Shown here piece by piece: positions 5,290-24,740 of a stretch of 64,000 nt of DNA. Position 1 is the first letter of the stretch. Each line of letters begins with the position of its first letter. The notes under the pieces are model-generated. The model was not told where the DNA came from. It was given only the letters and a program-made list of their open reading frames with translations, and made no database searches. The stretch is taken from assembly GCA_023410715.1 (NCBI GenBank), contig JAEYPN010000030.1, positions 48,806-112,805 of the forward strand, in the 5' to 3' direction. This DNA is from Bacillota bacterium. Lineage in GTDB: Bacteria > Bacillota_I > Bacilli_A > Izemoplasmatales > UBA1188. The position numbers were made by a program, and so were the translations under genes.

Positions 5290-5317
5290 TTTACATAAAA
5301 TATAATTATGATATAAT
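5290..5317 (+). promoter_or_regulatory. Sigma-A-type promoter of riboswitch operon 1
   Basis: TTTACA (5290-5295), 16 nt spacer, extended -10 TGaTATAAT (TATAAT 5312-5317). This places the TSS at about the 5' end of the aptamer. Confidence 0.6.
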
Positions 5318-5319
5318 AC

Positions 5320-5402
5320 TAATGTAATAAAAAGGCAAACTTACCGAAAGATAAGGACGCAAAGCTATAGGGCCTTTAAATAGGTAGCCAGTTACTATTA
5401 TC
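5320..5402 (+). promoter_or_regulatory. c-di-GMP-I (GEMM-I) riboswitch aptamer, copy 1
   Basis: The core GGCAAAC-(CTTACC GAAA GATAAG)-GACGCAAAGC-TATAGGGCC...AGGTAGCC matches the GEMM-I consensus seen in Vc2 (GGCAAACC...GAAA...GGACGCAAAGCC...GGCC...GGUAGGUAGC). P2 is capped by a GNRA (GAAA) loop. Flanking complementary segments at 5320-5327 and 5392-5400 can form P1. Confidence 0.85.
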
Positions 5403-5423
5403 TTTAGATAATAGTTTTTTTTA
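5394..5423 (+). terminator. Riboswitch expression-platform terminator, copy 1
   Basis: ACTATTATC-ttta-GATAATAGT hairpin followed by a T-run. Its 5' arm overlaps the 3' strand of the putative P1. Confidence 0.8.
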
Positions 5424-5500: not shown

Positions 5501-6955
5501 ATGAAAAATAAAAAACAGAAAACATTAAGATTAATCTTAATTTCTTTTGCTTTCATTTCATTAGTCACTTCTTTTTATTTTTTATCTTATACATATGCCT
5601 GGTTATCAGGTAGCGGTGAAGAAAGTAATAATTTTGTTTTTGATAAATTAAATGTGGAAGTTAAAGCAAATTCATTGCATGTAAGCATAATAAAGTTAAA
5701 TGATTTAGTTTATGTTGATTTTGATGATTATTATAAATTTGATGGCGAAAAACGCGTTGAGACTGAAACTTATTTAAATATTAATGAAATTGCGACTTCA
5801 GTAACCATTAATATTAAAAATATTAGTAACGTTACATCAAGAACTTATATTTCGCAGATTAAAACAGTTAGTGGAACAACCATAAGAAATGAAGGCGTAA
5901 ATGAATTAATTTATGTTTTTGCAAGTAAACAATACATCCGTTCATTTTATCAAGATGGTAGAGTCGATAATTCAATTTACGATTATACTGAAAATATCTG
6001 GTATATAGATCAACCTTTAAGAAACGGTATTTTAGGTGAAGAAGATAAAGTAAATGGTGAATGGGTTTTAGATCCTAATCAACCAGTTTATGACATCTTA
6101 ACTGATGAGTGGTATATTGATCAAGCAAAACCAGATGGCATTTTAGGTGAAGAAGATAAGATGGATGGTAGCTGGGTTTTAAGTGATATTCAAGGAGATA
6201 ATGTTATAAATTCAATCTTTGATGAAGAGACTGGATATTGGTACATTGACCAAGCCGTAAGAAATGGACGTTTAGGTGAAGAAGATAAAGTAAATGGTGA
6301 GTGGGTTTTAGATACAAATACTTTTCATATATATAATGAAGAAACTAATAAATGGTATTTGGACTTAGATACACCAGATGGCATTTTGGATGACATTGAT
6401 AAAATAGATGGAGTTTTTGTAAGAAATTATGACATTCATGTTGTATATGATGCTGCTCGTGATACATTTTATGATGATCAACCAGTTAGAAATGGTGTCT
6501 TAGATGATTATGATAAGGTGAATGGTGCATGGGTAAAAGCTTTAGAACAGGATGGCACTACTCCTTATTCAATAAACTTTAATGGTATCTGGTATATAGA
6601 TCAACCTTTATATAACTATACATTGGGAATTGAAGATAGAGTTCAGGTTAATGGTAATTACCGTAGTATTCTTGAAACAATTTTAGCAAGTAATTATAAA
6701 GGGGAAACTTTAAAAGAAAAAATTGCTGCATATAATACTCAGTATTTAAAAGAAATTTATGAACAGCAATTATTAAGTAAAAATCAAGAAATTTCGATTG
6801 AAGTCGCTATATGGGGAGATTATAATAATTTATCACCTATGCAAAAAGAATATTATTTGAGTTCTGATATAAGTTATAATTTATTGCTAGAAATTAAAGC
6901 GATTCAAAAAGAAAATATAAATCCTAATTATGAAACGGATGGTGACTTGAGATGA
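5501..6955 (+). CDS. Secreted repeat protein with a SipW/TasA-type signal peptide and six ~40-aa WY(I/L)DQ...LG(D/E)EDKVNG-W repeats
   Basis: AGGAGGTGA RBS. The N-terminus is basic then hydrophobic, ending in YTYAWLSGSGEESNNFVFDKLNVEV, which follows the TasA-like pattern. Six tandem repeats span aa 151-386. The stop overlaps the next start (ATGA). Confidence 0.6.
   Translation: MKNKKQKTLRLILISFAFISLVTSFYFLSYTYAWLSGSGEESNNFVFDKLNVEVKANSLHVSIIKLNDLVYVDFDDYYKFDGEKRVETETYLNINEIATSVTINIKNISNVTSRTYISQIKTVSGTTIRNEGVNELIYVFASKQYIRSFYQDGRVDNSIYDYTENIWYIDQPLRNGILGEEDKVNGEWVLDPNQPVYDILTDEWYIDQAKPDGILGEEDKMDGSWVLSDIQGDNVINSIFDEETGYWYIDQAVRNGRLGEEDKVNGEWVLDTNTFHIYNEETNKWYLDLDTPDGILDDIDKIDGVFVRNYDIHVVYDAARDTFYDDQPVRNGVLDDYDKVNGAWVKALEQDGTTPYSINFNGIWYIDQPLYNYTLGIEDRVQVNGNYRSILETILASNYKGETLKEKIAAYNTQYLKEIYEQQLLSKNQEISIEVAIWGDYNNLSPMQKEYYLSSDISYNLLLEIKAIQKENINPNYETDGDLR
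5951..6658 (+). repeat. Six tandem copies of an unassigned ~40-aa coding repeat
   Basis: The repeat consensus is roughly QDG-x-x-x-x-SIYD-x-x-T-x-x-WY(I/L)DQP-x-x-NG(I/V)LG(D/E)EDKVNG-x-WVL. Units are 37-43 aa. Confidence 0.85.
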
Positions 6956-7665
6956 CAAAAAAAATCTTAGTCGCGATTATATCGTTAGCATCCGTAGTGT
7001 TAATTGCTGGTTTTACTTTTGCTTGGTTTATAGTTGAAGCTAACAAAAAGGTTGAAATTAAACCAGGATCATTCACGATTGGCGTTAATATTTATCTAGA
7101 ATATGAAGAAAATGAACAAAACAAAACATTAACTTTAGAAAATATTAAAAGTAATTCAAGCTTAAAAGAATTATACTTTGATGAAAAAAGGGATGCCATC
7201 ATTCTTGATGGTAGTGATGAAACAAAAATAAATTATGTTGGCAACTTACGCGTTAAACTAAAAATAAAAAATGAAATTACTGCTCGTTATCGTGTAAAAA
7301 TTATAGATGAATGGCATGTTAGACGCGAATATAAACTTGATGGAAAAGTTAATGATACCGCTGTTGACCATGAGTTCTCTGAATATAGATTTACCCCATT
7401 TCACATTTTCGAAAGATCAGGAGAAAATTATACGTTTTCTTCAACTGATGGATATATTTATTCTAATAAAATTTTAAATAAGGGTGTTAATGTTAATGAA
7501 ATAGACTTTATTAGCGGCGCAGAAAAGTATCCTACTAAAAATAATTATTTATTTCGTGAAACATGTTATGTTTATTTAAAAGTTAAATTAGAAGTAGTTC
7601 AGTTAAACCGTTACACACAAATATGGAATATCGGAAGTATTCCTGTAAATGATTTAATTTTATAA
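6952..7665 (+). CDS. TasA/camelysin-like small secreted protein (SipW-type signal peptide)
   Basis: 237 aa. The N-terminus MTKKILVAIISLASVVLIAGFTFAWFIVEANKKVEIKPGSFTIGV resembles the B. subtilis TasA leader (...GGGTWAAFND...FASGTLDL). It is translationally coupled to the upstream gene. Confidence 0.55.
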   Translation: MTKKILVAIISLASVVLIAGFTFAWFIVEANKKVEIKPGSFTIGVNIYLEYEENEQNKTLTLENIKSNSSLKELYFDEKRDAIILDGSDETKINYVGNLRVKLKIKNEITARYRVKIIDEWHVRREYKLDGKVNDTAVDHEFSEYRFTPFHIFERSGENYTFSSTDGYIYSNKILNKGVNVNEIDFISGAEKYPTKNNYLFRETCYVYLKVKLEVVQLNRYTQIWNIGSIPVNDLIL

Positions 7666-7682
7666 CTAGGAGGTGAATTTCC

Positions 7683-10600
7683 ATGACCAGAAAAATAAAA
7701 AACGTTATTAAAAAAACGATGGTTTTAGTTTTATCTATTTTAACATCGTTTTTTATTACTTTACAAATTTCTGAAACAAGCAATGTTAAAAAAGTATATG
7801 GTGATGGATATTCAGGTGATTTATATAATCCAAGCTATGGTTCATCATTCATGAACATTGATCCAAGTGTCGCTAACCCATCTAACTATGTAAGTTTTAG
7901 CGAATTTATGGAAGTTACTTATGGGGAAACACAATTTGTTAATGGTAAGATTGTAATAACCAGTCCTGGTATTTTTACAGATGAAATCATCACAAATGAG
8001 GAACAAGTGGTACTTGATCAGTATTCACAAAAAAAAATTGTGATTGGTTCAGCAGATGAGTTATATTATTTTTCATATTTATGCCATATGCAATATAAGA
8101 ATAATAATAGTAATGGTAATATAAATATTCCACGTAATTATTATATGAGCTTATATTATGTGCTTGGCGATGATATTGATTACGTTGATGCCTCACGTTA
8201 TATGCGTTTATTTATCCCTGTTGGAGACTCTGTATCAAAGTTTACGGGAACATTTGATGGCCAAGGATTTACCATTACTAATTTATTTTTAAAACCAATA
8301 GAGTCATCAGATGTTTACGAAGAGTCATATGGAGGACTTGAATATTATTCATTTTTCTCTGAAACAAGTAGTAACGCAATAATAAAGGATTTTGGTTTAA
8401 TCAATCCAACAATTATTCAAACAATAGCTTTTAATCAGATGTTCTATACATCATATGTAGTCGGAAGAAATTATGGTTTAGTTGATCATGTTTATGTTAT
8501 TGATGATAGAGGCAACTCTTCAGGCATTTCTGCTGAAGGTGGCTTTTTCATTTCTGGGTTAGTTTCAAAAAATTATGGAACATTTACTAATGCATACTAT
8601 TCAAGCAGATTAATATCATCTACTTCAGTTACAGAAAAAACTGGTTCAAATCCGATTATTATTGATAACTTTGGTTCAATGTCTCATGTATATTTTGATA
8701 GAAGCATCTTGAATGAAGAATTTACTGTTTGTTCATCAAATAATGCATGTGATGTAACAAATGGGTATATTATTGATGCGACAGTAAGCAATTTTGATCC
8801 TTCAACAATTGTATATAATAATACGTTAATTGGTTTGTCAACTAGTCAGTTCCAAAATGAAACATATTTTAAATCAGATAACTGGTTTAATAATACATCA
8901 TATGGTACTAGTGCTCAAATGAGGTTACATGATACTTATCCAATACTAAAAGGATTTTATTATAATTCAACATATGATGCCTATGAAATAACAGATGCGA
9001 CAGACTTAGTATATATGATTAGTATCTTTTCTAAAGCTTCATATTATCGTAATCAAAAATACATTTTAGTCAATAATCTCGATATGGATCAAATTGGACC
9101 TAAAGCTTATAAGGGCGGCGAAACAGCATTTAGTGGTGTTTTAACATCATTACCGATTAAAATAAATGAAACACAATATATCACTAATCGTGGTCAAAAT
9201 TATAATTATCCATACTATGCGATTTTTAATTTAAAGATCAATGTTGGTTCTGCATTTGGTAATATTTATTCATACGGATTATTTGCATATTTATCAGGTA
9301 AAATTGAAAACATTGCGATTGTTAATGCTGAGATAAGTCCTTTAGATGCAAGCGCAAATGATTTTAACTATTCAATTGGTATCGTTGCAGGAAAATTACT
9401 TAATGGACGTATAAGTAATGTACATGTTTCGGGAAATATTACTTTAAAAACTAAAGCATCAACAAATGCTATTGGCAAGATTTCTGTTGGAGGTCTTGTT
9501 GGTCAAGGTTCAGGGATGATCATTAATTCATCAGCTAGCGGTATTATAAATGGAGAAGTCCATGAAGCTAATAACTACATGAACTCATCATCGATTGGTG
9601 GTTTAATTGGTTTATCTGATAATATTATAGTGACAGGATCACGTAGCGTTATTAATATTTCTGGTATATCATTTACAAGCGCGAATGCTATAACGCAAAA
9701 CATTACAACTTATGTTGGTGGACTTATTGGTACTGGTACAACAAGTGATTTTAACACTTCACATAATGATGGTTCAATTACTATTAATGAAAATGGTTTT
9801 TATAATGGTAATTTATATGTTGGTGGTATTATTGGTAAATTAACTCAAGCAAATGCCATAATTAGTGAAATTACTAATCGAGGTAAGATTACTGTAAACT
9901 TTACTAATTTTGGGACAAAAACATACCTGATGACCACAAGAATCAGTGGAGTAATGAGTGTTCAATCAGCATTACGTAATCCGGAGTTTTACGGGGTTGG
10001 TAATACTGGTAACATTGAAATAAAAAACAAAAATATATCATCAAGTGAATTTACAAACACTAACGCAAGCATTGATGTAAAGGTGGCTGGTGTTATTAAT
10101 GCAAATTCAACTCATATTATTTCTAAGGGGCTACATAACAGTGGCAACATTACTGGTGATCTTGCAATTATTAGTGGAGTTACTGGAGTAATAAGTGCAG
10201 AAAATAGCACATCAACAGTTTATACTGACTTATCTAAATCATACAATTCAGGTAATTTGACCTTAACAACATCTAATGTAATTACTCATCATGATATATT
10301 TGTTTCGGGAATTGCCTTTGGAAAATATATGGTTTTAGATAATTTACGAAATACAGGAAATATTAGTATCAAGATAAGCCATAGTTCAACACTTAGCTTA
10401 AATGCATCAGGAAGTTATAAGACATTTAAAGTGGTTGGTAATTTTGAAGAAGTTTCATTAAACAGAAATATTGCCAATTGTTATAATGAAGGTAAGATTA
10501 ATCTTATAACTGAAAATATAACTGATAATTCTTTTAAGTTTAACACTTATGTCAGTGGAATTTGTTATAAAAATGACAATAGAGCTATTTATTCTGATGC

Positions 10601-13600
10601 ATCAGAAGAATCAATAACTGCAAATATTAGTAAAAGCGGTTCACTGGATAATGTTTTAAACACTGGCGAAATATATGTGAATACTTATATTTATGGAATG
10701 TGTGTTGCCTCAGGAATTACATCTATGAATGCATCATTAATTACTAACGCCTTTAATATTGCCAATATATATGTAAGAAATGAAGGGTTTGCGCCAAGTG
10801 GTGATTGGGGTGGTAGTTTATTTGAAACAGCCGCATGTGGTATTTCATATTTACTACTTAATCGTTATGCTCAAATCAAAGATTCAGCTAACGCTGGTTC
10901 GATTACGGCAATTGAGGAAGTTAATACAGCTACTAATATTTTAGCCTCAGGAATTGCTGGAAGAAATGACGTATCAGAAACTGGTGCGACAATAAGTAAT
11001 ACATCTAATAATCACTTCGCAAAAGTTATGTTTGCGATTAACTATGGTCAAATTTTAGCTTGGAATAATGCTGAAGCATCACCAACTGCGCCAGAACAAT
11101 TAACGCAAGGGTGGTTTGGACTTTGGAGTGGTGGTTCTAACTATGAAGCTAAGACTAAAGCTACAGGAATTTTAGCATCAGGGGTTATGAGTACTGTAAA
11201 TGTAATAAATTATGGTAATATTTATTCACCAACACTTGCGAGTGGAATATTTGGGTATATAAATGTTAACTTATTTACGGTTTCTGCTAACCAAACATAT
11301 GTTGCAAATACCATTAACTATGGTAATATTAGAAGGATTATTGCAAAACCTTCAACAACAACAAGTACAGGTAGCTTTACTGCCGGTAATACAACTTATT
11401 ATTTTACGCCTTCTTCAAGTAATTTAAATAATTATTTCTTAGGAGGAGCAATTGGAAATATTCGTACAAAAGAAAATATTTCTGGCTTATCTGCTTTTTT
11501 AGAAATATTTTCAACAGAATCTTTTAATATTAATTTTAGTTATCTAATAAATTTTGATCAGTTGATTGATATGGTTGGTTTCAATATTAAGAGTGCTTCA
11601 TTTAGTGCGGTTAATGCTTTAATTACAACTAATAGTAATGATACATCAGCTGAACCATTTGAATCTTTAAAACCTTATGCATTTTCAGATGCACCTGCAA
11701 CACAAACAACGAACATGGGAATTTTTTCAAGTGACTTCCCATTAAAAAATCCACCAGATACACCTGAGTTTAAAGGAATTGAAACCAATGAACTTATTCC
11801 TGAATATATTTCATTTATTCCTTATAATAAGGTTAATGGTAAAATTAGAGATATTGTTTTTGGAACTAATGTTTCAGAACAAAATCAAAATATTTATGGA
11901 ATTTATGCTTTAGCTTCAACCCAAGGTGTAGTTAACGGACAGTACATTCCTGAAAATTTTAATTGGTCAGGAATTGATCCAGAAATAGGTGGTGAAGCTG
12001 ACTCAAGCTGGCGAGGAGAAGAAGGTAATAATTTAACTATAATTTTTTCAGGTAAGATGAATCAATTATCTCAATCTGTTTCAACAGCAATCTTTGATTT
12101 AGAATTAGTATCGACAACTGATAGTACGATTAAACTTAAAAAGCCAGTTATTGACCTTAAAAATAGTACACTTACCTATTATGTATCAAAAAACTCAAAG
12201 GAATATTTAACGGGATGGACTTCAGGAGAACTAGAACAAGTTATTTTGGGTAAGCAAAAAACTAAAACTGAATATGTATTAGCTTCAGCAAATAACTATA
12301 ACTTTGGTGGTGTAAGCAATATTACTAATATTCGTATCTTACATGGAACCGATATAATAAAAGAAGACACAACATATTATAAAAATCCAGTAACTGTGGC
12401 AGAAACAAAAATAAAGAATGAAAGTAACACTTTAGGCCGGTTAATTTTGAAAAATTCAGGTACCAATAATTATGTTCCCGTTGGTGATTATTTACTAAGT
12501 GGATCATCATACGTTGATATTTATGATAAATATTATGCTGGTACTTTAGACGTAGAGTTTATTTCTCATACTCCTTATACCATAAGTGGTTTCCTTCAAA
12601 CACATTATTTTTACCAATCAAAAGGAAGTATTATTCAAAAAGGCTTAGATCAATCGATTGCTAAAAACTTTGACATTCTTCAACCAACAAGTGTTACGAC
12701 ATGGTTTAGTTCGTCAACTTATCAATTAGCGTTTACAAGTGGTACAGTTGTTAATAAAACAAATGGTCCTTATTCTGCAAAAGATAGTAATTTTTATGTT
12801 TATGCCGGAGCAAGAACTGATTATGCAAAAACATATGTGCTAGTACAATATACATATTTGGATTTATCAGATCCAGAATCTGAGGTAATCTTTGTTCCTA
12901 ATGAAAAATCTGCATATAAAACTAACTATAATGATGGCTATAAGCTTGCATATGGGGCAAATTTAGTCCAAATGGATTATAATAAAGAAACATATTCAGA
13001 TTGGAAAGACAACCTAGCTTATGTACCTCGTTATTCAGGAGAATTTAAGAGCTTAACAAATGGTGAAAATTTAGGGAAAATTACTGTTATGGCACAGGAT
13101 GGTGAAACAACTTCAACATATACGATTCAAATTGAATATGTTGAAGCCCAAAGTATAAAGGATTTAGATGCTGTTTATGTTAATAATGTCGCATTATCAC
13201 CTGATTGGGTATTAGCTGGTAATCAGACTGGTACTACTCCAAATTCTATATATGATCCGGTTACTAAAAAATGGTACATAGATCAAAAGAATGGTTATAA
13301 TGGTATATTAGGCAATGAAGATAAAGTAAATAATGAATGGGTAGAAATACCAGATCAAAAAATAACTAATCATTGGATATTTGATAGTACAACGAATAAG
13401 TATTATGTTGATCAACCTATTTATAATGGAACGCTTGGAAATGAGGATAAAGTTGATGGATCTTTTGTTTTAGCAGTTCCACAAAGTAGTACAACAGAAC
13501 ATGCAATCTATGATTTACAAACGGGTAACTATTATCTTGATCAACCAGTTTATAATAATATTTTAGGTGTAGAAGATATGGTAACGAATAGATGGACTAA

Positions 13601-16600
13601 TGCATCTAAACAAGATGGTAGTACTTTAAACTCCATTTATGATTCAAAAACAAAAACCTGGTATTTGGATCAACCTGTTTCATATAATAATATCTTAGGT
13701 GATGAGGACAAAATAAATGGTAGTTGGGTTTTAGCAGATAAACAAGACGGTACAACTTTATACTCAATTTATGATTCAACTACAACCAAATGGTATTTAG
13801 ATCAACCGGTTTCATATAATGGTATTCTTGATGAAGAAGATAAGAGCTATCAATATGTTTTAGCTGATGTAAAAAATTATATTTATAGCAGTTCAAATGG
13901 TAAATGGTATTTAGATCAACCTGTTTCATATGATGGAGTTCTTGATGAAAAAGATCGTGTATTCCAATGGGTTATAGCTGATGCTCAGGATGGTTCAACT
14001 CCACACTCAATTTATGATTCAGCAACTGAAATCTATTATCTTGATCAGCCAACTACAAATGGTAAATTAGGTGATGAAGATCAAGTAAATGGTAGTTGGG
14101 TCTTAGCTGACTATCAAGATGGAACTTCATTAAATACAATTTATGATAATAAGACTAAAAAATACTATGTTGATCAAATTGTTTCATATAATGGGGTTTT
14201 AGGTGATGAAGATAAAAAAGTTGTAGTAACAAGTTCTACATCAAGTGAAATCTATTATGAGATTCCAAGTTCAATCGGAAAAGTTAATTATAAACCAGGA
14301 ACAAATCACTTAGGATCGATTAGACTGTCATTTAAGGTATATAATTTTAGAGATAAAACAGATTTAAGTGATATAATAACCTTATATCGTTATGATTCAA
14401 GAACTGGACAAAAAGTATTAGTTCCTCTAATGAATGGAGATATTATTAATTACACATTAATTGGTGGAGTCGTAACAAATGATAATAAAAATTTTGATAA
14501 TTTAAATAAATCATGGAGTTATGGAACACTTGATTTTGAATTATCATTATCACAGGATTTACAAGGCGGACTTTATTATGTCTATGTGTCACTTGGGACA
14601 GATGAATCTACTGATTACTATATCGCGTTTACGAAGATGAAGTCACCTGAACCAATTGTCACTGAGCTTGAATATGATGGAAATTCAATAATTCCTGAAT
14701 ATGAAAATCTTGATGATGAAACAAATTCTAACCGTTTTATCACATCATATACTAGTTACATTGAATTTGGCAAACATTATTTAGAAGGTGTAACTGATAA
14801 ATCAATGTATTTTGATGATTTAAGAACAATTGTTGATGTGTATTACAATGAAATAACCGGTAATAATTTACCTGATTATTTAACAAAACTAAGAATATCG
14901 CAATATTCAACAATTGAAAGCATTACATTTTCACTTGATTCATCATCAACTGCTTCACATCATAGATATATAATCACTTATACAATCTTGGCTGAAGATG
15001 GACTTACTAGAGGAACATTTATTCATTATATTGAAGAAATGAATGTTGATGTAAAAATTAAAGAAACATTTATTAATGGTAATACTGTTGATGCTCAAAA
15101 TAAAGTCTCATTTGCAAGAGAAGAAGCCCCTTTAATACATGTTGAATATGGTTTAACAGATATTTATAATTGGCAATACTTTTCATGCACAAGTAGTAAT
15201 CAAACCTTAGAAGATTCAATGTATTATATCAATGTTGACGAGTCATTTGGTTTTGAGATTATATTTGTTGAAGAACTAGACCCAGGTGATTACACGTTTA
15301 CCTTAAAATATAGTGCTTTAAATGTGTTAATATATGAAGGAAATCCAAGTATTACTAGTGATGATATTTATGTATCATATAATATTGTCTTTGAAATTTT
15401 AGAGGTAACAAAAAAGAAAAATGAAAATAGTTATCTTGAAGCTGTTAAGTTTGTAACAGATGTTATTTTTACCGGGTTAAATACAATTATTGATAATAAT
15501 CTTATTACCCCTGCAACTTATCAAAATTATTTAGTTAATGAGCAAGCGCGAAAAATTGTTTCATTACCAAGCGGAATATATTATAATGAATACAAAGCAA
15601 ATAATAATCGCTTCTGGGTAATTGGGCAGGTTCAAAAGACTAATCTTGATAGTTATATGCCAACCTTTACATTACCAATTGGCGCATTAGTTTACCGCGT
15701 AGAAATTGGATATCTTGAATCAGCAAATCAAGATGGTACAACCGCGCATTCAATTTATGATAGTGTAACTGAAAAATATTATTTAGATCAACCATTACCT
15801 AATTTAGTTTTAGGTGATGAGGACAAAGTTAATGGCGCTTGGATAATTGCATCTTCTCAGGATGGCACAACACCTAATTCCATTTATGACTTTGATACAA
15901 ATAAATGGTATATTGATCAAGCTGTTTATGATGGAAAACTTGGTAAAGAAGATAGGATTAAAGAATATCTAAAGGGTAATGGAACTATTGACTCAGAAGA
16001 TTTAAGATTTGATTTTAATCCACTTGACGAAGATAACTTTAATTATGTGACATATCGTGTGTTTGCAGAAGCATATATAGAAGGTGATGAAACATATGGT
16101 AATATGTACACCGATTATATCGTTTCTGTACAAGATGTTTCATTTAATGTTAAATTTGATATTGTTGTTGAAAAAGATGATTCATTTAATGTTAATCTTA
16201 ATAGCGAGCAACTTGTCGTTCATATTTCATTTGTTAACTATGAATCTGGTTATGTAATTGATAAGAATGGCAACTCTGTTTATGTACCATATAAGGATGA
16301 TACCCACATTAGAACAGCAATGTCAATGTTTTCATATTTAACAAGTAAAGACAATAAACAAGTTTTTATCAATAATCAGTTTTCAACAACTCAAGCTGGT
16401 TATTATAGAATAGATATTGAATTACCAGATAATTTAACATATGAATTGAGTTTTGCTTCATCAACAATTGTTGTTGATGAGGATAATAAAGGATTTATGG
16501 TTCAAGCATCCGTGATTCCAAAAAAATACCTGCTTAAAATAATCATCAAAGCAAATGGAAATCAAAGCGTTGATTGGGGACAACATCAGGAGACAATGGA

Positions 16601-16616
16601 TAAATATCCATTATAA
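7683..16616 (+). CDS. Giant (2977 aa) secreted adhesin-like protein with a GLUG-motif beta-helix region and ten copies of the ~40-aa repeat
   Basis: AGGAGGTGA RBS and an N-terminal signal/TM segment. FTGTFDGQGFTITNL is followed by about 15 periodic G-G-(L/I)-(I/V)-G type turns (VGGLVGQGSG, IGGLIGLSD, VGGLIGTGT, VGGIIGKLT ...), which is typical of GLUG-domain adhesins. Repeat blocks lie at aa 1847-2179 and 2683-2760. No LPxTG or other obvious C-terminal anchor is visible. Confidence 0.8.
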   Translation: MTRKIKNVIKKTMVLVLSILTSFFITLQISETSNVKKVYGDGYSGDLYNPSYGSSFMNIDPSVANPSNYVSFSEFMEVTYGETQFVNGKIVITSPGIFTDEIITNEEQVVLDQYSQKKIVIGSADELYYFSYLCHMQYKNNNSNGNINIPRNYYMSLYYVLGDDIDYVDASRYMRLFIPVGDSVSKFTGTFDGQGFTITNLFLKPIESSDVYEESYGGLEYYSFFSETSSNAIIKDFGLINPTIIQTIAFNQMFYTSYVVGRNYGLVDHVYVIDDRGNSSGISAEGGFFISGLVSKNYGTFTNAYYSSRLISSTSVTEKTGSNPIIIDNFGSMSHVYFDRSILNEEFTVCSSNNACDVTNGYIIDATVSNFDPSTIVYNNTLIGLSTSQFQNETYFKSDNWFNNTSYGTSAQMRLHDTYPILKGFYYNSTYDAYEITDATDLVYMISIFSKASYYRNQKYILVNNLDMDQIGPKAYKGGETAFSGVLTSLPIKINETQYITNRGQNYNYPYYAIFNLKINVGSAFGNIYSYGLFAYLSGKIENIAIVNAEISPLDASANDFNYSIGIVAGKLLNGRISNVHVSGNITLKTKASTNAIGKISVGGLVGQGSGMIINSSASGIINGEVHEANNYMNSSSIGGLIGLSDNIIVTGSRSVINISGISFTSANAITQNITTYVGGLIGTGTTSDFNTSHNDGSITINENGFYNGNLYVGGIIGKLTQANAIISEITNRGKITVNFTNFGTKTYLMTTRISGVMSVQSALRNPEFYGVGNTGNIEIKNKNISSSEFTNTNASIDVKVAGVINANSTHIISKGLHNSGNITGDLAIISGVTGVISAENSTSTVYTDLSKSYNSGNLTLTTSNVITHHDIFVSGIAFGKYMVLDNLRNTGNISIKISHSSTLSLNASGSYKTFKVVGNFEEVSLNRNIANCYNEGKINLITENITDNSFKFNTYVSGICYKNDNRAIYSDASEESITANISKSGSLDNVLNTGEIYVNTYIYGMCVASGITSMNASLITNAFNIANIYVRNEGFAPSGDWGGSLFETAACGISYLLLNRYAQIKDSANAGSITAIEEVNTATNILASGIAGRNDVSETGATISNTSNNHFAKVMFAINYGQILAWNNAEASPTAPEQLTQGWFGLWSGGSNYEAKTKATGILASGVMSTVNVINYGNIYSPTLASGIFGYINVNLFTVSANQTYVANTINYGNIRRIIAKPSTTTSTGSFTAGNTTYYFTPSSSNLNNYFLGGAIGNIRTKENISGLSAFLEIFSTESFNINFSYLINFDQLIDMVGFNIKSASFSAVNALITTNSNDTSAEPFESLKPYAFSDAPATQTTNMGIFSSDFPLKNPPDTPEFKGIETNELIPEYISFIPYNKVNGKIRDIVFGTNVSEQNQNIYGIYALASTQGVVNGQYIPENFNWSGIDPEIGGEADSSWRGEEGNNLTIIFSGKMNQLSQSVSTAIFDLELVSTTDSTIKLKKPVIDLKNSTLTYYVSKNSKEYLTGWTSGELEQVILGKQKTKTEYVLASANNYNFGGVSNITNIRILHGTDIIKEDTTYYKNPVTVAETKIKNESNTLGRLILKNSGTNNYVPVGDYLLSGSSYVDIYDKYYAGTLDVEFISHTPYTISGFLQTHYFYQSKGSIIQKGLDQSIAKNFDILQPTSVTTWFSSSTYQLAFTSGTVVNKTNGPYSAKDSNFYVYAGARTDYAKTYVLVQYTYLDLSDPESEVIFVPNEKSAYKTNYNDGYKLAYGANLVQMDYNKETYSDWKDNLAYVPRYSGEFKSLTNGENLGKITVMAQDGETTSTYTIQIEYVEAQSIKDLDAVYVNNVALSPDWVLAGNQTGTTPNSIYDPVTKKWYIDQKNGYNGILGNEDKVNNEWVEIPDQKITNHWIFDSTTNKYYVDQPIYNGTLGNEDKVDGSFVLAVPQSSTTEHAIYDLQTGNYYLDQPVYNNILGVEDMVTNRWTNASKQDGSTLNSIYDSKTKTWYLDQPVSYNNILGDEDKINGSWVLADKQDGTTLYSIYDSTTTKWYLDQPVSYNGILDEEDKSYQYVLADVKNYIYSSSNGKWYLDQPVSYDGVLDEKDRVFQWVIADAQDGSTPHSIYDSATEIYYLDQPTTNGKLGDEDQVNGSWVLADYQDGTSLNTIYDNKTKKYYVDQIVSYNGVLGDEDKKVVVTSSTSSEIYYEIPSSIGKVNYKPGTNHLGSIRLSFKVYNFRDKTDLSDIITLYRYDSRTGQKVLVPLMNGDIINYTLIGGVVTNDNKNFDNLNKSWSYGTLDFELSLSQDLQGGLYYVYVSLGTDESTDYYIAFTKMKSPEPIVTELEYDGNSIIPEYENLDDETNSNRFITSYTSYIEFGKHYLEGVTDKSMYFDDLRTIVDVYYNEITGNNLPDYLTKLRISQYSTIESITFSLDSSSTASHHRYIITYTILAEDGLTRGTFIHYIEEMNVDVKIKETFINGNTVDAQNKVSFAREEAPLIHVEYGLTDIYNWQYFSCTSSNQTLEDSMYYINVDESFGFEIIFVEELDPGDYTFTLKYSALNVLIYEGNPSITSDDIYVSYNIVFEILEVTKKKNENSYLEAVKFVTDVIFTGLNTIIDNNLITPATYQNYLVNEQARKIVSLPSGIYYNEYKANNNRFWVIGQVQKTNLDSYMPTFTLPIGALVYRVEIGYLESANQDGTTAHSIYDSVTEKYYLDQPLPNLVLGDEDKVNGAWIIASSQDGTTPNSIYDFDTNKWYIDQAVYDGKLGKEDRIKEYLKGNGTIDSEDLRFDFNPLDEDNFNYVTYRVFAEAYIEGDETYGNMYTDYIVSVQDVSFNVKFDIVVEKDDSFNVNLNSEQLVVHISFVNYESGYVIDKNGNSVYVPYKDDTHIRTAMSMFSYLTSKDNKQVFINNQFSTTQAGYYRIDIELPDNLTYELSFASSTIVVDEDNKGFMVQASVIPKKYLLKIIIKANGNQSVDWGQHQETMDKYPL
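13221..14219 (+). repeat. Eight tandem copies of the ~40-aa WY(L/I/V)DQ...LG(D/N)EDK repeat inside the giant adhesin
   Basis: An example unit is QDGTTLYSIYDSTTTKWYLDQPVSYNGILDEEDK. The family is the same as at 5951-6658. Confidence 0.85.
15729..15962 (+). repeat. Two further copies of the ~40-aa repeat near the C-terminal part of the giant adhesin
   Basis: QDGTTAHSIYDSVTEKYYLDQPLPNLVLGDEDKVNGAWIIASS followed by QDGTTPNSIYDFDTNKWYIDQAVYDGKLGKEDRI. Confidence 0.8.
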
Positions 16617-16643: not shown

Positions 16644-17285
16644 ATGAAGGGTTTAAAAAAACTTTTTAAAAGTAAGAAAGGTATCTTTGCTATATCACTA
16701 ATGTTACTTGCAGTAGTGTTAGTGAGTGCTGGCGGATTATGGGCTTGGTTTACGCAAGAAGGTACTCAGAGTACTTTTACGTTTACTGCTGGTCAAGTTA
16801 AATATGAACTAGGCAATATTCCAACAACTGATGGAAACTTTAAACTTCCTGGTGATCCAGTTATGGTTTATGCTTTTAGTCTAACAAACAAATCAAATAT
16901 TGATACGAATGTTAGAATAGAAGCAACATATAAGATTACACCAGCTATCGGATCTACAGCTCCTGAATTAACAGGTATAATCGGAATAGGGAACGTCCTG
17001 ATTACTAGAATAACTGATGGTTGGTTTATAAAGGATGGATATTATTACCTAGGAACATCTGGTTCTGAAACTACTTTAACTGCTGTATCTGATATAGTAA
17101 ATGGCACGATTGTTGTTGAAAACTTTGTCACAACAATGGTTATTAATGGTGATGTAATTGGTAATGACTATATGGGTTCTACCCTCACGATTACATTTAA
17201 GTTTCAAGCCAAACAAGCAAATAATTTAACCTGGGAAGATTGTGCAACAAAAAATATTGATTTTACAACAGGTTTAGCAAAGTAA
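16644..17285 (+). CDS. TasA/camelysin-like fibre-subunit candidate (SipW-type signal peptide)
   Basis: 213 aa with a GGAGA RBS. The N-terminus ...LLAVVLVSAGGLWAWFTQEGTQSTFTFTAGQVKYEL is close to the TasA/CalY leader pattern. The body is Thr/Gly/Val-rich and looks beta-rich. A SipW-type peptidase gene starts 4 nt downstream. Confidence 0.65.
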   Translation: MKGLKKLFKSKKGIFAISLMLLAVVLVSAGGLWAWFTQEGTQSTFTFTAGQVKYELGNIPTTDGNFKLPGDPVMVYAFSLTNKSNIDTNVRIEATYKITPAIGSTAPELTGIIGIGNVLITRITDGWFIKDGYYYLGTSGSETTLTAVSDIVNGTIVVENFVTTMVINGDVIGNDYMGSTLTITFKFQAKQANNLTWEDCATKNIDFTTGLAK

Positions 17286-17289: not shown

Positions 17290-17787
17290 ATGATAAAAAA
17301 AATAGGTAAGATTATAACTAACGTTTTGATTATTGCAATTCTCTTTTTTTCGTTATTTACAATTATAATGGGATTAATTGGCTTTAAATGGGATGTTGTA
17401 TTATCTGGCTCTATGGAACCAGATATTCATGTTGGAAGCCTAAATTACCGGAAATATGTGTCATTTGAATCACTTAATATTGATGATGACGTTGTCTATA
17501 AATCTAAATCTAGTGGTGATTTAATCACCCATAGAATCATTGATATTGATTACGAAAAAAAGATAGTAGTTACTCAGGGTATTAATGGTAAGGATAGCGG
17601 GGCAGCAAAAGAAGAAGTTGATTATACAAGAATTGTCGGCAAGTCATATTTTTCGATTCCTTTAATTGGATACGTTGCATTTTATTTTAAAAAATATTTT
17701 GTGGCTATAATTCTATTTGTAATTGCAGCCTTATTAATATATCAAGCTATTAAATTATTTAAAACACCAACAAAAGAAGAAAACTAA
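17290..17787 (+). CDS. SipW-type (ER/archaeal-type, S26B) signal peptidase I, paralogue 1
   Basis: 165 aa with an N-terminal TM. It has the canonical VLSGSMEP catalytic Ser box, an ITHRI His box and a C-terminal TM. The usual KGDNN box reads TQGINGKD, so the Asp is absent. Confidence 0.75.
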   Translation: MIKKIGKIITNVLIIAILFFSLFTIIMGLIGFKWDVVLSGSMEPDIHVGSLNYRKYVSFESLNIDDDVVYKSKSSGDLITHRIIDIDYEKKIVVTQGINGKDSGAAKEEVDYTRIVGKSYFSIPLIGYVAFYFKKYFVAIILFVIAALLIYQAIKLFKTPTKEEN

Positions 17788-17788: not shown

Positions 17789-20167
17789 ATGAAAGGAGTC
17801 TATGTTTTTATGAGAACAAAAAATAATAAACCACTTTTTGCATTATTTTTAGCTTTTGCATTTGGGCTCCTTTTAATTATTGGTTTCTTTTTAATTTTAG
17901 TTATGAATACTAATGATAAAAAATTAGGAGAAATGCTAAGAATTAATACTGATCAAAAATATACAATATTTTTTGATGATATTAATTTTAAAAGAGAAAA
18001 ATACATTGAAAATTATTTAACACTAAGTGATGGAATATTATCTAGAACAGAAGAACTATCAAATAAAAAATATTTAATAATTTCTGGTAAGCTAGCTTAT
18101 TTATATGATGATGGGATTGATGTTTATTATTACTTTGATAATCAAGTATTTGAAGTATTTGATGACGAAGAATTAAATAATATTTACTTGATTAATGATC
18201 AAGGGGAAATCTTATGTTCATATAAGGAAGTTAACTTTAGTTATTATTTTATCGAACTAAGAAAATATATAAGTGAATCTCGTACTAAGGAAATATTTAA
18301 CGCTATTTTAAAAACTAGACATGGTAGTGATGAAATCAGCGTAAATGGTAAAAAGGGCTTCATTATCTATAAATATGTTGATGAATTTCAAGCTAATATG
18401 ATTTTTGAATATCACAATATTAGAAGTGCAAAGTATGATGTACAAATTGTAACTTATACACTTGTATTTATTGTAATTATTTCTATCGTTTTACTTTGTA
18501 TTTACTTTATTTTGTATAAGATGATTATTAAGAAAACTAATGATCTTGATATTGCAAGACGAAATTCACAAAATCCTTATACATATATCATTAAGACTAA
18601 TAAAAGTGGCGTTTTTACTTTTCAAAACCGGAACTTTAGAACTGACTTTCATGGTAAATATAAAAAGTTATCAGACTTTGAATTAGATATTAATACAGAT
18701 ATTGATAGTATCGTTAAAAATCAAATACCATTTACAGTTAAATTAATAGATAACAGAAGTAGAGAACATTACCTACATTTTATTGTAGTTGATAATGTAA
18801 AAGAACTTGTTTTTATTGGTGAGAATTTATCGAAGATGCATAATAAAACTGGTATAGAGTCTTATCATAAAGTTGATGAATTAACTCAAGTTCCAAACAA
18901 AGAAGCATTTATTTCAGATATTGATGAACATATTATTGATAATAAAAAGGTTGAAAAAGCCGGTGTATTATTATTAAATATCAAGAAATTTAATAACATC
19001 AATAATTTATTTGGTCGTTATTTTGGCGACAAGATAATGATGGAATTTGTTAAGATGCTTGTTGAAATAATTGATGATAAAGGAAAAATATATCGTATAG
19101 AGGGCGATAATTACGCGATATTAATTAATCCTTTAGAAAATATTGATGAATGTAAGAAAATGGCCAGTTTAATAATTAAACGTTTTGAAAAACCAATAAA
19201 TTTCTTAAATAATGAAGTAGTTTTAGGTTGTAAAATTGGTGGTTATCTTATTATCAAAGAAAAGTACACCCCAGCCATTACAGCTTTAGAAATTATTGAT
19301 AAAGTATCCTTAGCGTTAAAAGAAGCTAAAAATGATAAGAACAATGATTTTATAATGTATGATAGTAACATTGAAACGATAAATCAAAAAGAGATTCAAA
19401 TGTTAGATGATATGGGCAAAGCCTTAAAAAAAGATGAGTTTGTGATGTTCTATCAAGCACAATATAATACAAAAATAAAAAAAATAGTAGGTTTTGAAGC
19501 TTTAATTAGATGGAATAACCCACTTTACAGAAACGTATCACCACAAAAATACATAAAATTAGCAGAGAAAACTGGAATGATAGTACCTCTAGGTATGCAT
19601 ATTGTTAAAGAGGTTTTAAGGTATGCTAAAAAAATAGTCAATGATATTGTCCATGTATCATTGAACGTTTCGCCAATTCAACTAATTCAGTCAGGATTTG
19701 TTAATGATTTTTTAGCGGAATATAATAAATATAGTTTTAAACCTGGCCAAATTGCTATTGAAATTACTGAATCATTTTTGATGGAAACATTACAAGAAGT
19801 GATTCAAAAATTAAGAATTATAAAAGAAAATGGTATAAAAATTTATATGGATGACTTTGGAACAGGTTATTCATCACTTCTATACCTAAAAGATTTACCA
19901 ATTGATGTAGTTAAACTTGATCAGCAATTTATTTCATTAATTGAAGTCGATGAGTCTTCAAAGCTTATTGTCAAAAAGATAATTGAAGTTGCAAAAGGAT
20001 TAAATTTGGATGTAGTAGCTGAAGGGGTTGAGTCTGAATCCCAAAGCAAGATTTTACTTGAAAATGGCTGTGATATTATCCAGGGATATTTAATCTCTCG
20101 GCCAATACCAGAGCTTGATGCTACAGCTTTGCTTAACAACATCAATAAACAAAAAGGAGTTGATTAA
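17789..20167 (+). CDS. Membrane sensor protein with degenerate GGDEF and intact EAL domains (predicted c-di-GMP phosphodiesterase)
   Basis: 792 aa with two TM segments bracketing a ~190-aa extracytoplasmic region. The GGDEF site reads R-I-E-G-D-N-Y. The EAL domain has all canonical boxes: GFEALIRW, LNVSP, IEITES, MDDFGTGYSS, VKLD, AEGVES and IQGY. The start could instead be ATG 17810. Confidence 0.85.
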   Translation: MKGVYVFMRTKNNKPLFALFLAFAFGLLLIIGFFLILVMNTNDKKLGEMLRINTDQKYTIFFDDINFKREKYIENYLTLSDGILSRTEELSNKKYLIISGKLAYLYDDGIDVYYYFDNQVFEVFDDEELNNIYLINDQGEILCSYKEVNFSYYFIELRKYISESRTKEIFNAILKTRHGSDEISVNGKKGFIIYKYVDEFQANMIFEYHNIRSAKYDVQIVTYTLVFIVIISIVLLCIYFILYKMIIKKTNDLDIARRNSQNPYTYIIKTNKSGVFTFQNRNFRTDFHGKYKKLSDFELDINTDIDSIVKNQIPFTVKLIDNRSREHYLHFIVVDNVKELVFIGENLSKMHNKTGIESYHKVDELTQVPNKEAFISDIDEHIIDNKKVEKAGVLLLNIKKFNNINNLFGRYFGDKIMMEFVKMLVEIIDDKGKIYRIEGDNYAILINPLENIDECKKMASLIIKRFEKPINFLNNEVVLGCKIGGYLIIKEKYTPAITALEIIDKVSLALKEAKNDKNNDFIMYDSNIETINQKEIQMLDDMGKALKKDEFVMFYQAQYNTKIKKIVGFEALIRWNNPLYRNVSPQKYIKLAEKTGMIVPLGMHIVKEVLRYAKKIVNDIVHVSLNVSPIQLIQSGFVNDFLAEYNKYSFKPGQIAIEITESFLMETLQEVIQKLRIIKENGIKIYMDDFGTGYSSLLYLKDLPIDVVKLDQQFISLIEVDESSKLIVKKIIEVAKGLNLDVVAEGVESESQSKILLENGCDIIQGYLISRPIPELDATALLNNINKQKGVD

Positions 20168-20172: not shown

Positions 20173-21627
20173 ATGTTAATTTTAGAATCTATTATGCTTG
20201 ATATTTTAGTTACCATTTTCATGTTACTTATAATATGTGTTTTAATACTCTTCCTTTACAGAAGTATAAAAAAAGAAAACTTCAGATACTATAATGAAAA
20301 TATTAGAGAGATTGATGGGATTAAGTCAAAGAGAGATTTTGTGAGTGATGTTTCTGATACGATTGCCAGATTTGGTAATATTGCTAGATTCTCTTTAATG
20401 AAGGTATCAACAGAAGGACTTGAAAATATTAATGAAAAATATGGTATAAAGGATGGAGACAGAACTATTCAGGAAATATGTACTAGAATGCTTAAAATTG
20501 TTCCTGAAAAATCAGTTATAGGTCGAACAGATAATACAGAATTTACAATCTGGATAAAAAATATTTTAAGTTTAGACCAAATTACTGTGTTAGCTGAAGA
20601 TATAATTGAATCAATTGAGAGACCAATTGCCGTTCAAAATGGCGAAGTAAACGTTGAATGTAAGATTGGAATTGTAAAATTTCCCGATCATGGGTTTAAT
20701 TATAAAACATTAATCACTAACCTAAATACTGCCTGTTATGTGGCAATTAAAGACACTGGAGCAAAGTTTGCAATCTTTAGTGAAAAAATTAAAGATGAAG
20801 AAGCTGAAAATGCTAAGTATTTCTTAGAATTAAAAGATGCTATTAAAAGGGAACAATTTACTTTATACTATCAGCCAATTGTTTCCTTAACTAAAAAGAA
20901 AATTGTAGCGGTAGAGTCCTTGCTTAGATGGAATCATCCAACATTAGGTGTTTTAGGACCCCATGAATTTATTGATGTTTTAGAAAAATCAGGCGATATA
21001 AACTGGGTTGGCTTTTGGGGGATTCAGGAATTAATAAAAAAACAACAGGAATTTAAAAAAACAATACCAAACTTTGATGTGGTATTTACTTTTAATCTTT
21101 CGCCAAAACAGCTACAATCACCTACGATTGTCGATGAGTTTAGAAAAATACTTAGAAAGTTTAATCAAAATCCGGAAACAATCTGTTTAGAAATAGTTGA
21201 ATTTGCGATGTTCCAAAAATATGGAATTATTTTAGAAAATGTTGAAAAATTAAAAGAGCTTGGCTTTAAGATTGCTATTGATGACCTAGGATTAGAATAT
21301 GCTACGTTATCAAAGCTTGATAAGATGCCAATTGATTATATCAAACTTGATAAATCATTTATTTCTCAAGCTAAAGAGAATTTTATGAATGTCAAGATTA
21401 CTGAAATGTTGATTGATATTACTAAAGATAAACAAATTAAGATTGTTGCTGAAGCAATTGAAAACGAAGAAATGATTAGCTACGTTCGTAATTTAGGCAT
21501 TAATTTAGTTCAGGGATATTGCTTCTCAAGCCCAGTAAATTCCCAAGATATTAAACAGCTAATTCTTAAAAATAATTATAAAGAGATAATAGATAGCACG
21601 GAAAAAATTAAAGCGTCGACAGAATAA
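20173..21627 (+). CDS. Membrane protein with degenerate GGDEF and divergent EAL domains (phosphodiesterase or c-di-GMP sensor)
   Basis: 484 aa with an N-terminal TM. The GGDEF site reads R-T-D-N-T-E-F. The EAL boxes are partly altered: VESLLRW, FNLSP, LEIVEF, IDDLGLEYAT (for DDFGTGYSS), IKLD, AEAIEN and VQGY. Confidence 0.75.
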   Translation: MLILESIMLDILVTIFMLLIICVLILFLYRSIKKENFRYYNENIREIDGIKSKRDFVSDVSDTIARFGNIARFSLMKVSTEGLENINEKYGIKDGDRTIQEICTRMLKIVPEKSVIGRTDNTEFTIWIKNILSLDQITVLAEDIIESIERPIAVQNGEVNVECKIGIVKFPDHGFNYKTLITNLNTACYVAIKDTGAKFAIFSEKIKDEEAENAKYFLELKDAIKREQFTLYYQPIVSLTKKKIVAVESLLRWNHPTLGVLGPHEFIDVLEKSGDINWVGFWGIQELIKKQQEFKKTIPNFDVVFTFNLSPKQLQSPTIVDEFRKILRKFNQNPETICLEIVEFAMFQKYGIILENVEKLKELGFKIAIDDLGLEYATLSKLDKMPIDYIKLDKSFISQAKENFMNVKITEMLIDITKDKQIKIVAEAIENEEMISYVRNLGINLVQGYCFSSPVNSQDIKQLILKNNYKEIIDSTEKIKASTE

Positions 21628-21701: not shown

Positions 21702-21781
21702 GTAATATAAATGGCAAACTTGTTGAAAAACAAGGACGCAAAGCTATAGGGCCTATACATAGGCAGCCAGTTGCTATTATC
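21702..21781 (+). promoter_or_regulatory. c-di-GMP-I (GEMM-I) riboswitch aptamer, copy 2
   Basis: GGCAAAC-(CTTGTT GAAA AACAAG)-GACGCAAAGCTATAGGGCC...AGGCAGCCAGTTGCTATTATC. It shares long identical stretches with copy 1, such as GGACGCAAAGCTATAGGGCCT. Confidence 0.85.
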
Positions 21782-21803: not shown

Positions 21804-21847
21804 TTTTAAAAAGCTATTATTAACTGAATGAAAGGGGGGTAATGGCC

Positions 21848-22525: not shown

Positions 22526-22556
22526 GAAAATTATAAATAAATTAAGGAGAAGAGAA

Positions 22557-23885: not shown

Positions 23886-23922
23886 CATTTTAATATAATT
23901 TTTAATAACTAAATATTTATAT

Positions 23923-23953
23923 AAGACCACAAAGTTTTTTGTGGTCTTATTTT
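23923..23953 (+). terminator. Rho-independent terminator inside the locus, after the 442-aa subunit gene
   Basis: AAGACCACAAA-gtttt-TTTGTGGTCTT perfect hairpin followed by a T-rich tail. Confidence 0.8.
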
Positions 23954-23960
23954 AGAAATA

Positions 23961-23969: not shown

Positions 23970-24003
23970 TTATACATATATATCAAAATTTAGCAAAGGT
24001 TGT

Positions 24004-24729: not shown

Positions 24730-24740
24730 GAGGTGGGTTT

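Follow-up and report, generated by a model that had tools for sequence, protein, structure and literature searches.

An Orphan Repeat of About 43 Residues, Apparently Inserted at Three Sites of Two Predicted Surface Proteins in an Izemoplasmatales Operon

In a stretch of 64,000 nucleotides from a Bacillota bacterium of the Izemoplasmatales (assembly GCA_023410715.1, contig JAEYPN010000030.1, positions 48,806 to 112,805; hereafter the window, in whose numbering all coordinates are given), a unit of 37–44 amino acids is present in 16 copies, six in the protein encoded by gene A and ten (8 + 2) in the giant protein encoded by gene B. As judged by alignment with relatives, the three arrays formed by these copies are insertions into conserved scaffolds, and this is the main new finding beyond an earlier annotation made from the letters alone (the sequence-only reading), in which the repeat had been noticed. 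The repeat is best regarded as a new family within a well-known class, the tandem beta-hairpin modules of bacterial surface proteins, and its insertion history is unusually clear. It is an orphan module of about 43 residues, presumably extracellular and specific to its lineage; with a probability of about one half, its tandem arrays are displayed on the cell surface and give A and B a common multivalent binding property.

The Arrays as Insertions into Conserved Scaffolds

Gene A (5501–6955, + strand; 484 residues) encodes a member of a conserved family of about 215 residues with a SipW-type signal, broken here by a six-unit array. A search with full-length A against 5.8 billion protein clusters found only A itself. 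Synteny in relatives places a gene for about 215 residues at the position of A, and a hidden Markov model (HMM) of the A family was built from five of these syntenic proteins. With its repeats removed, A gives one single-domain match to this model (E = 5.9e-19, HMM positions 9–209), and in intact A the match is split, positions 9–103 aligning with residues 18–118 and positions 123–209 with residues 378–466. All of the 52 other A-family members that adjoin giant genes are unbroken and 208–265 residues long, A being the sole interrupted member of 53.

Gene B (7683–16616, + strand; 2977 residues) encodes a giant, presumably secreted or surface-located protein that is the scaffold for two arrays. 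Its family is widespread in Acholeplasmataceae, Mariniplasma, Peloplasma and Izemoplasmatales: 35 homologues of about 2300–2500 residues, from Acholeplasmataceae, 'Tenericutes' and Izemoplasmatales metagenome-assembled genomes, show 25–36% identity, and species-representative genomes contain 71 loci, including those of Mariniplasma, Peloplasma aerotolerans and complete Acholeplasmataceae chromosomes. The homologues align over the entire length of B, which is colinear with a homologue-only profile (16 homologues, 2416 positions). At the site of array 1 the profile goes from position 1684 to 1693 while B goes from residue 1841 to 2197, so that 355 residues (1842–2196; window 13206–14270) are inserted between two domains of B. 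At the site of array 2 the profile goes from 2141 to 2150 while B goes from 2673 to 2768, and the 94 inserted residues (2674–2767; window 15702–15983) lie in a loop of the conserved C-terminal domain; this site is a loop of 6–7 residues between conserved flanks in 17 of the 20 aligned homologues.

Two homologues, P0053 and P0056, carry a different tandem repeat cassette at the array-2 site (profile positions about 2142–2166). Like the window repeat, this cassette is tandem, beta-rich and without family assignment, and it occupies the same scaffold loop, but its unit of about 50 residues ('FYVSxDG...TG....F.Y.G..YTL') is unrelated in sequence, since the HMM of the window unit finds nothing in it, and in those lineages no protein other than the giant one was found to carry it. 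The presence of a different cassette in two lineages indicates that the array-2 site is a surface-permissive, variable display site. The foreign cassettes extend over residues 2950–3293 of P0053 and 3291–3391 of P0056 (approximate limits; motif '..FYVSxDG..I....G..V..TG....F.Y.G..YTL'), and both proteins also have insertions of 730–940 residues at profile position ~1290. As a source of the window unit, the segment 'GIYDSMYDEENTYIDGVEDHYGSVRV' of the B homologues beside array 1 was considered and rejected, because the unit HMM matches nothing there in 20 homologues (independent E-value, i-E, above 0.2).

The Repeat Unit

The array in A (residues 148–388; 5942–6664) consists of six units at 5945–6073, 6074–6181, 6185–6313, 6311–6427, 6425–6541 and 6539–6661, with unit HMM scores of 47–72 bits, an isoelectric point (pI) of 4.05 and a net charge of −35. 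Array 1 of B (residues 1845–2185; 13215–14237) comprises eight units at 13215–13346, 13347–13475, 13473–13604, 13602–13736, 13734–13865, 13866–13979, 13977–14108 and 14106–14222 (47–75 bits; net charge −27), and array 2 (residues 2680–2766; 15720–15980) comprises two, at 15723–15851 and 15849–15971 (net charge −7). All units are encoded on the + strand, and copies follow one another at a spacing of 37–44 residues, the unit being about 43 residues long. Throughout, the arrays are strongly acidic (pI 4.05–4.35), rich in aromatic residues and free of cysteine. Translation of the open reading frames (ORFs) and a motif scan bear out the location of the repeats at 5951–6658, 13221–14219 and 15729–15962 given by the sequence-only reading.

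The consensus of the 16-unit alignment (A1) is AxxQDGTTxxSIYDxxTxKWYxDQPVxNGxLGxEDKVNGxWVxx, with which the consensus proposed earlier agrees. Y21, D23, L32 and D36 are invariant, Q24 is kept in 15 of 16 units, and I12, Y13, D14, N/D29 and E35 are almost fixed. A six-frame HMM scan of the whole 64 kb recovers exactly 16 units at 47–75 bits, the next best match scoring 0.2 bits; the repeat is thus far above chance expectation. To avoid circularity, cross-protein HMMs were built, each from the units of a single protein: with the model trained on A every one of the ten B units was detected (i-E 2e-9 to 2e-18), and with the model trained on B every one of the six A units (i-E 1e-9 to 2e-20), so that the earlier count of 16 repeats (6 + 10) common to two proteins holds in full.

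Operon, Export and Cyclic di-GMP

From A onward the + strand genes are spaced by −4, 17, 27, 4, 1 and 5 nt, and these spacings are consistent with the earlier placement of A and B in one operon. The end of A and the beginning of the next gene, p237, share 4 nt (6952–6955, ATGA-type overlap of stop and start codon), which suggests translational coupling. The small protein encoded by p237 (6952–7665), with the SipW-type N-terminus GFTFAWF, is the orthologue of the 218–228-residue gene product that precedes the giant gene in relatives (phmmer E = 2.4e-24 to positions 9335–9991 of locus L001). Behind B lie p213 (16644–17285), a camelysin/TasA-family protein (Peptidase_M73, PF12389; 30.9 bits against a cutoff of 22.5, E = 2.9e-7) with the N-terminus ...GGLWAWFTQ, and the gene for a SipW-type (archaeal/ER-type) signal peptidase I of 165 residues (17290–17787; TIGR02228, 72.5 bits against a cutoff of 51.85), to which the SipW equivalog model gives 60 bits, under its own cutoff.

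The N-terminus of A reads SYTYAWLSG, with TYAWL at residue 31. The motif T/F-Y/F/W-A-W-F/L behind a hydrophobic segment in A, p237 and p213 is presumably the SipW-cognate signal, as in TasA and CalY. The SipW-type N-termini, the SipW peptidase and the Peptidase_M73 protein together point to a context of export and surface location, and the earlier description of A as a SipW-type secreted protein appears sound, given its N-terminus and the presence of a SipW gene and a camelysin/TasA-like gene after B. Likeness to TasA was also considered for A, p237 and other small 'YAWF' families and was rejected, these families having no Pfam hits.

The leader of A contains a predicted aptamer of the c-di-GMP-I class (5325–5400, + strand), which cmscan assigns to the RF03167 variant 'c-di-GMP-I-GGC' (59.5 bits against a gathering score of 59, E = 1.6e-11, model positions 1–80). 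It is preceded by the promoter-like site TTTACA-16-TG-TATAAT (5290–5317, + strand), which is a consensus match only (11 of 12 positions, with an extended −10 TG). The AU-rich hairpin ACUAUUAUC-UUUA-GAUAAUAGU, followed by U7 (5394–5422, + strand), overlaps the 3′ end of the aptamer and is a candidate expression-platform terminator; the hairpin was read from the sequence and its terminator role inferred, a G+C-based terminator scan having left it unflagged. At the 3′ end of the operon, two genes (17789–20167 and 20173–21627, + strand) encode GGDEF-EAL proteins (EAL E = 1.9e-63 and 1.7e-60; GGDEF E = 4.9e-22 and 5.2e-18), and the same pair stands after the giant gene in L002 and L003. In relatives, c-di-GMP-I aptamers (RF01051) lie directly upstream of A-family genes (L004, 6504–6581; L001, 25923–25998).

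The aptamers of the window and of its relatives, together with the GGDEF-EAL genes, link the operon to cyclic di-GMP (c-di-GMP), which in general promotes adhesion and biofilm formation; the riboswitch control goes beyond what the sequence-only reading had seen. By gene content and order, the riboswitch forms a conserved c-di-GMP-linked module with the A-family gene, the p226-family gene and the giant gene, and a literature search found no paper describing this combination.

A second aptamer (21704–21779, + strand; RF03167, 62.2 bits) precedes an adjacent gene cluster that encodes a further TFAWF protein. The variant call, and with it the ligand specificity, is tentative: the scores lie right at the threshold (59.5 and 62.2 bits against 59), and the aptamers of relatives match the standard RF01051. 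Tandem double or triple c-di-GMP-I aptamers, about 125–140 nt apart and unusually dense, occur before the second cluster of relatives (L001, 17090–17413; L002, 21228–21576; L003, 21320–21529).

The TapA-SipW-TasA operon of Bacillus subtilis and the operons for archaeal bundling pili resemble this region in the SipW-type peptidase, the Peptidase_M73 protein and the several small proteins of the window with an N-terminal motif '...T-F/Y-A-W/Y-F...'. TasA-type proteins form matrix fibres via donor-strand exchange (PMC9674648), TapA serves as the nucleator (PMC10151520), and TasA-like pili have been described in archaea (PMC9245690). The Bacillus and archaeal operons differ, however, in that they have neither a giant protein nor such a repeat nor a riboswitch, and no similarity to TasA or TapA could be detected in the A and p237 families.

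Possible Function of the Arrays

In the proposed mechanism, tandem arrays inserted at three permissive sites of two exported proteins would be displayed on a cell-surface structure that the operon builds when c-di-GMP signalling switches it on. The arrays would then act as a multivalent binding cassette, possibly stabilized by divalent cations, through which the small subunit A and the giant B would be given the same adhesive target, a polymer of the environment or of a host. A cation dependence is possible in view of the invariant D23 and D36, the nearly fixed E35 and the pI of 4.05–4.35. If the proposal is true, the locus would be a clean natural case of the modular re-tooling of a surface machine, in which one short cassette occupies three permissive sites of two co-expressed proteins while dozens of relatives do without it. 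The arrays would mark permissive display sites in a widespread but uncharacterized family of giant-protein/SipW-type operons under c-di-GMP riboswitches (Acholeplasmataceae, Mariniplasma, Peloplasma, Izemoplasmatales). The module itself, being small, free of cysteine, confidently modelled by AlphaFold and without structural neighbour, would make an attractive structure target and binding scaffold.

A number of points weigh against this proposal. Any ligand, binding site or metal site of the arrays is putative. By inspection, the unit has no EF-hand, DxDxDG or GGxGxD spacing, its G-D/E-E-D-K-V-N-G segment being non-canonical, and Pfam models for dockerin, TSP3, RTX and cadherin do not match the arrays even at E ≤ 10. 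The ratio of the proportions of nonsynonymous and synonymous differences (pN/pS) among the units is about 0.64 overall, or roughly 0.4 once corrected, which indicates constraint of no more than moderate degree outside the motif positions. The repeat is seen in one genome only, hence without comparative support for function, and the AlphaFold2 model described below is built on paralogous pairs of that one genome and was judged by its confidence scores, DSSP and Foldseek. Furthermore, A, p237 and most of B have no Pfam match (B has weak GLUG and cadherin-like hits), and searches of PDB sequences with B and p213 found no relatives. Because the scaffold family is thus uncharacterized, the labels 'adhesin' and 'fibre' rest on analogy. 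The finding is neat and well defined, yet it comes from a single genome and leaves long-standing questions untouched.

The arrays may instead be passive extenders, that is, spacers or stalks, possibly rigidified by cations, without any binding specificity. Tandem small beta modules serve commonly as extenders in giant bacterial adhesins, array 1 is placed between two domains of B as a spacer might be, and the copy number differs by site (2, 6 and 8). An extender would be of little obvious use, however, within loops of compact domains, where array 2 and the array of A are situated; the invariant residues are polar or aromatic (Y21, D23, Q24, D36) rather than core hydrophobics only, and the fact that two co-expressed proteins have both gained this module suggests that they have a specificity in common. 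On balance a passive role is judged unlikely; if it proved correct, the repeat would be just another lineage-specific adhesin repeat.

A further explanation, somewhat less likely again, is mutual docking, as the sequence-only reading had also considered: the arrays of A and B would bind each other, perhaps through cation bridges, and tether B to an A-containing structure, or let it co-assemble with one, without any external ligand. The confinement of the module to two proteins of a single operon, whose genes are two positions apart, is in keeping with docking, as is the strict synteny of A-family and giant genes in 52 loci, which suggests that the two proteins already work together; the arithmetic of 6 + 2 = 8 units is suggestive only. 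All arrays are strongly acidic (net −35, −27 and −7), and without cation bridges their direct association is thereby disfavoured. Moreover, relatives keep the A-family/giant pairing without the module, so that docking needs none, and the different cassette of two other lineages is present in the giant protein only.

A bolder combination of these ideas is more speculative still and improbable as a whole. It supposes that a new autonomous mini-fold arose in one sparsely sampled Acholeplasma-like lineage and spread by intragenomic cassette insertion to three sites of two partner proteins, and that it acts as a cation-dependent self-recognition ('Velcro') module, the arrays binding each other or the same polymer. 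In a bacterium without a cell wall, a surface machine of fibre and adhesin under a c-di-GMP riboswitch would in this way be re-wired in its assembly or in its choice of target. Bacteria of the Acholeplasmataceae/Izemoplasmatales type, the group of the scaffold relatives, lack peptidoglycan, and the cell-wall pull-downs suggested earlier for this repeat are therefore probably moot.

Relation to Known Families and Predicted Structure

The repeat fits no known family, as the sequence-only reading had maintained: Pfam and NCBIfam give no match at normal thresholds, and all further family tests agree. When the Pfam threshold was relaxed to E ≤ 10, the arrays gave only sub-threshold hits to DUF5710 and the Kelch family, confined to a hairpin, and none to FG-GAP, FG-GAP_3, VCBS, WW or CW_binding, the last of which accords with the earlier exclusion of choline-binding repeats. 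DUF5710 (PF18974) scores 25.8 bits on array 1 against a cutoff of 26.5, with only positions 16–34 of the 44-position profile aligned; Kelch_2 (PF07646) reaches 14.5 bits against a cutoff of 21.3 and Kelch_1 (PF01344) 7.6 bits, again over the hairpin only. In a PDB sequence search, the repeat had no relatives apart from designed hairpins, namely the SAKe propeller 7on8 (E = 3.5e-5) and the chignolin-like AFFinger 3wkn ('YDPETGTWY', E = 0.069). By inspection, the spacing of the two tryptophans (WVLA...KWYLDQP, 22 residues) is like that of a WW domain, with no PF00397 match at E ≤ 10.

Only the hairpin half of the unit, 19–22 residues, resembles known families. An exhaustive profile search found 28 proteins besides A and B at E ≤ 0.001 (1.7e-11 to 9e-4), aligned mainly to unit positions 5–22 and at most to 3–32; the ten that were checked against Pfam all match the hairpin half only, and seven of them are FG-GAP/VCBS proteins with a period of 44–52 residues. 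A hairpin of 15–19 residues of the form phi-Y-D-x-x-T-x-x-W-Y also occurs in DUF5710, Kelch, SAKe and AFFinger, where nothing matches the second half of the window unit. Because these families are mutually unrelated, the hairpin appears to be a recurrent stable motif rather than a sign of common descent, and what they have in common seems to be a generic aromatic beta-hairpin of high stability.

Among known repeats, the W/Y-rich tandem beta-hairpins of CW_binding_1/choline-binding proteins and of the combined repetitive oligopeptides (CROPs) of clostridial toxins form multivalent ligand-binding surfaces on secreted proteins. They provide a working analogy only ('KWYYLD..NG.M' there, 'KWYLDQ..NG.L' here): the window unit is twice as long as that of CW_binding (PF01473, about 20 residues), has an acidic G-D/E-E-D-K segment, and belongs to a lineage that is probably wall-less.

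For the prediction of the structure, B units 4–5 were submitted to AlphaFold2 with an alignment (A9) of 13 in-register two-unit blocks, all of them paralogues from one genome. The resulting model has a mean predicted local distance difference test score (pLDDT) of 87.6 and a predicted template modelling score (pTM) of 0.59, all five models exceeding a pLDDT of 81, and on this basis the unit is confidently predicted to fold autonomously. A prediction of full-length A from a three-row alignment was discarded (pLDDT 36.6), the B units having been misaligned onto the N-terminal domain of A. According to DSSP, each unit has one 4+4 hairpin (SIYD / xWYL), a helical turn at (D/E)ED, a tight K-I/N-G/S-W hairpin and isolated bridges. 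In each unit an aromatic beta-hairpin (SIYD-turn-xWYLDQ) gives way to a stretch that is acidic and irregular (NG-x-L-G-D/E-E-D-K-V-NG-x-WVLA). As modelled, the module is small and rich in loops and does not have the make-up of a four-stranded blade. The Foldseek comparison proposed earlier was made with this two-unit model, and no fold match was found in PDB or BFVD: the best PDB hit was the Kelch domain of Keap1 (E = 0.52, TMq 0.15), with tandem WW domains (2jxw, E = 4.5, TMq 0.16) and fibronectin type I pairs (E > 4) likewise not significant, and the best BFVD hit had an E-value of about 1.

These results bear on the very doubtful possibility that the units are highly diverged blades of an FG-GAP/VCBS beta-propeller, the six- and eight-unit arrays forming closed propellers, as in integrin-alpha-like bacterial proteins, and the two-unit array completing one or oligomerizing into one. 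FG-GAP/VCBS repeats (PF01839, PF13517) are likewise extracellular tandem arrays with a period of about 44–52 residues, and their first half resembles that of the window unit in its DG loop, its strand ending in Y/F-D/R, its tight T/G turn and its W-Y-phi-D(Q). The seven FG-GAP/VCBS proteins among the ten checked, the period of about 43 residues and a plausible four-strand pattern (WVLA / SIYD / WYLDQ / GIL) would fit a blade, and insertion into loops calls for adjacent termini, such as closed propellers have. In hhalign, the unit profile and 31 FG-GAP/VCBS-type units give 96.5% over 22 columns (DGSTLNSIYDSKTKTWYLDQPV vs DGKTDVSIYRSNTGWWYVDQSS), a value that is circular because these units had been picked with the unit profile itself. 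The likeness counts as a lead rather than as membership. It is limited to half of the unit, and the hairpin 'phi-Y-x-x-x-T-G-x-W-Y-phi', which is present in the unit, is not specific to the family, since the unrelated Kelch_2, DUF5710, SAKe and AFFinger match it as well. The FG-GAP, FG-GAP_3 and VCBS models stay silent at the relaxed threshold. Of the FG-GAP Ca2+ loop D-x-D/N-x-D-G-x-x-D, the unit, with (A)D-x-Q-D-G-T-T, keeps DG alone, so that the DxDGDG calcium loop is missing, as is the second half WG...GD-IPV-P-GD; the window arrays of 2, 6 and 8 units are, moreover, inserted into other proteins. The DSSP assignment gives one 4+4 hairpin and short bridges per unit in place of four-stranded blades, and a two-unit array cannot close alone, although a pair cut out of its array would stay open in a model even where the complete array formed a propeller.

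Age and Distribution of the Copies

Over an ungapped core of 16 codons, the units agree at third codon positions with an identity of 0.50, where base composition alone would give 0.38. In codon-aligned units, by Nei-Gojobori counting, the proportion of synonymous differences (pS) is about 0.61 and is alike for A-A, B-B and A-B pairs, reaching at least 0.75 in 9 of 120 unit pairs, and pN is about 0.38. Nothing in this comparison points to amplification in recent times, to gene conversion or to a recent exchange of units between A and B. The copies are all of similar, considerable age, and the motif residues Y21, D23, Q24, L32, E35 and D36 have been maintained. Because synonymous sites are near saturation in all copies while motif residues are held, an artefact or a fresh slippage product is excluded; although the repeat is known from a single genome, the idea that it is non-functional, whether through recent slippage or expansion or through an assembly or annotation error, is essentially refuted, since the units vary in length and sequence, both ORFs (484 and 2977 codons) are open throughout, the same proteins are on record from two contigs and several sources, and AlphaFold2 gives a confident fold for the unit pair.

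An index-free profile search of 1.84 billion representative proteins found the full unit only in A and B (E = 4e-185 and 9e-102). The unit HMM had no match in 20 B homologues or in the six-frame translation of 75 related loci (851 kb), and a degenerate DNA pattern for the repeat, which matches 5 of the 16 units and is expected zero times by chance, had no match in metagenome or viral contig collections. The sequence-only reading had stated that absence of the repeat outside this genome would weaken any functional inference, and such absence is what the protein, related-locus, metagenome and viral searches found. The lineage is very thinly sampled: the closest homologue of B shares 37% identity with it, and even the valyl-tRNA synthetase (ValRS) is a singleton at 90% identity. 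In view of this sampling, 'unique' may mean 'unique so far'.

Neighbouring Features of the Window

Behind the second riboswitch, a cluster at 21842–29266 (+ strand) contains a gene for a 442-residue STFAWFT protein (22557–23885), a 241-residue ORF with a hydrophobic N-terminal segment (24004–24729), and ORFs of 514 and 576 residues placed where relatives have AAA_5 and DUF2357 (McrBC-like) genes, a correspondence of position only. Many relatives have two paralogous giant genes per contig, each with its own A-family gene (L006/L012, L010/L027, L023/L052, L026/L033, L047/L051), and the 64-kb window has one. A second giant ORF in the window (48777–56807, + strand; 2676 residues) has a hydrophobic N-terminus and no Pfam match and contains several antisense ORFs of more than 100 residues; it was considered as a repeat-free paralogue of B and rejected, as BLASTP shows no similarity.

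Elsewhere in the window, a T-box leader (37737–37940, + strand; 141 bits) lies upstream of a ValRS-like gene (38437–41004), and a ribosomal protein L21 leader (44416–44491, + strand; 41.5 bits) overlaps the start of an ORF at 44402–44818. The gene at 57062–58765 (+ strand) encodes a putative lipoprotein with metallophosphoesterase and 5′-nucleotidase C-terminal domains, in which a low-complexity linker rich in Ser, Thr and Lys (TSSSKTSSKTSSKTSSK) follows the signal.

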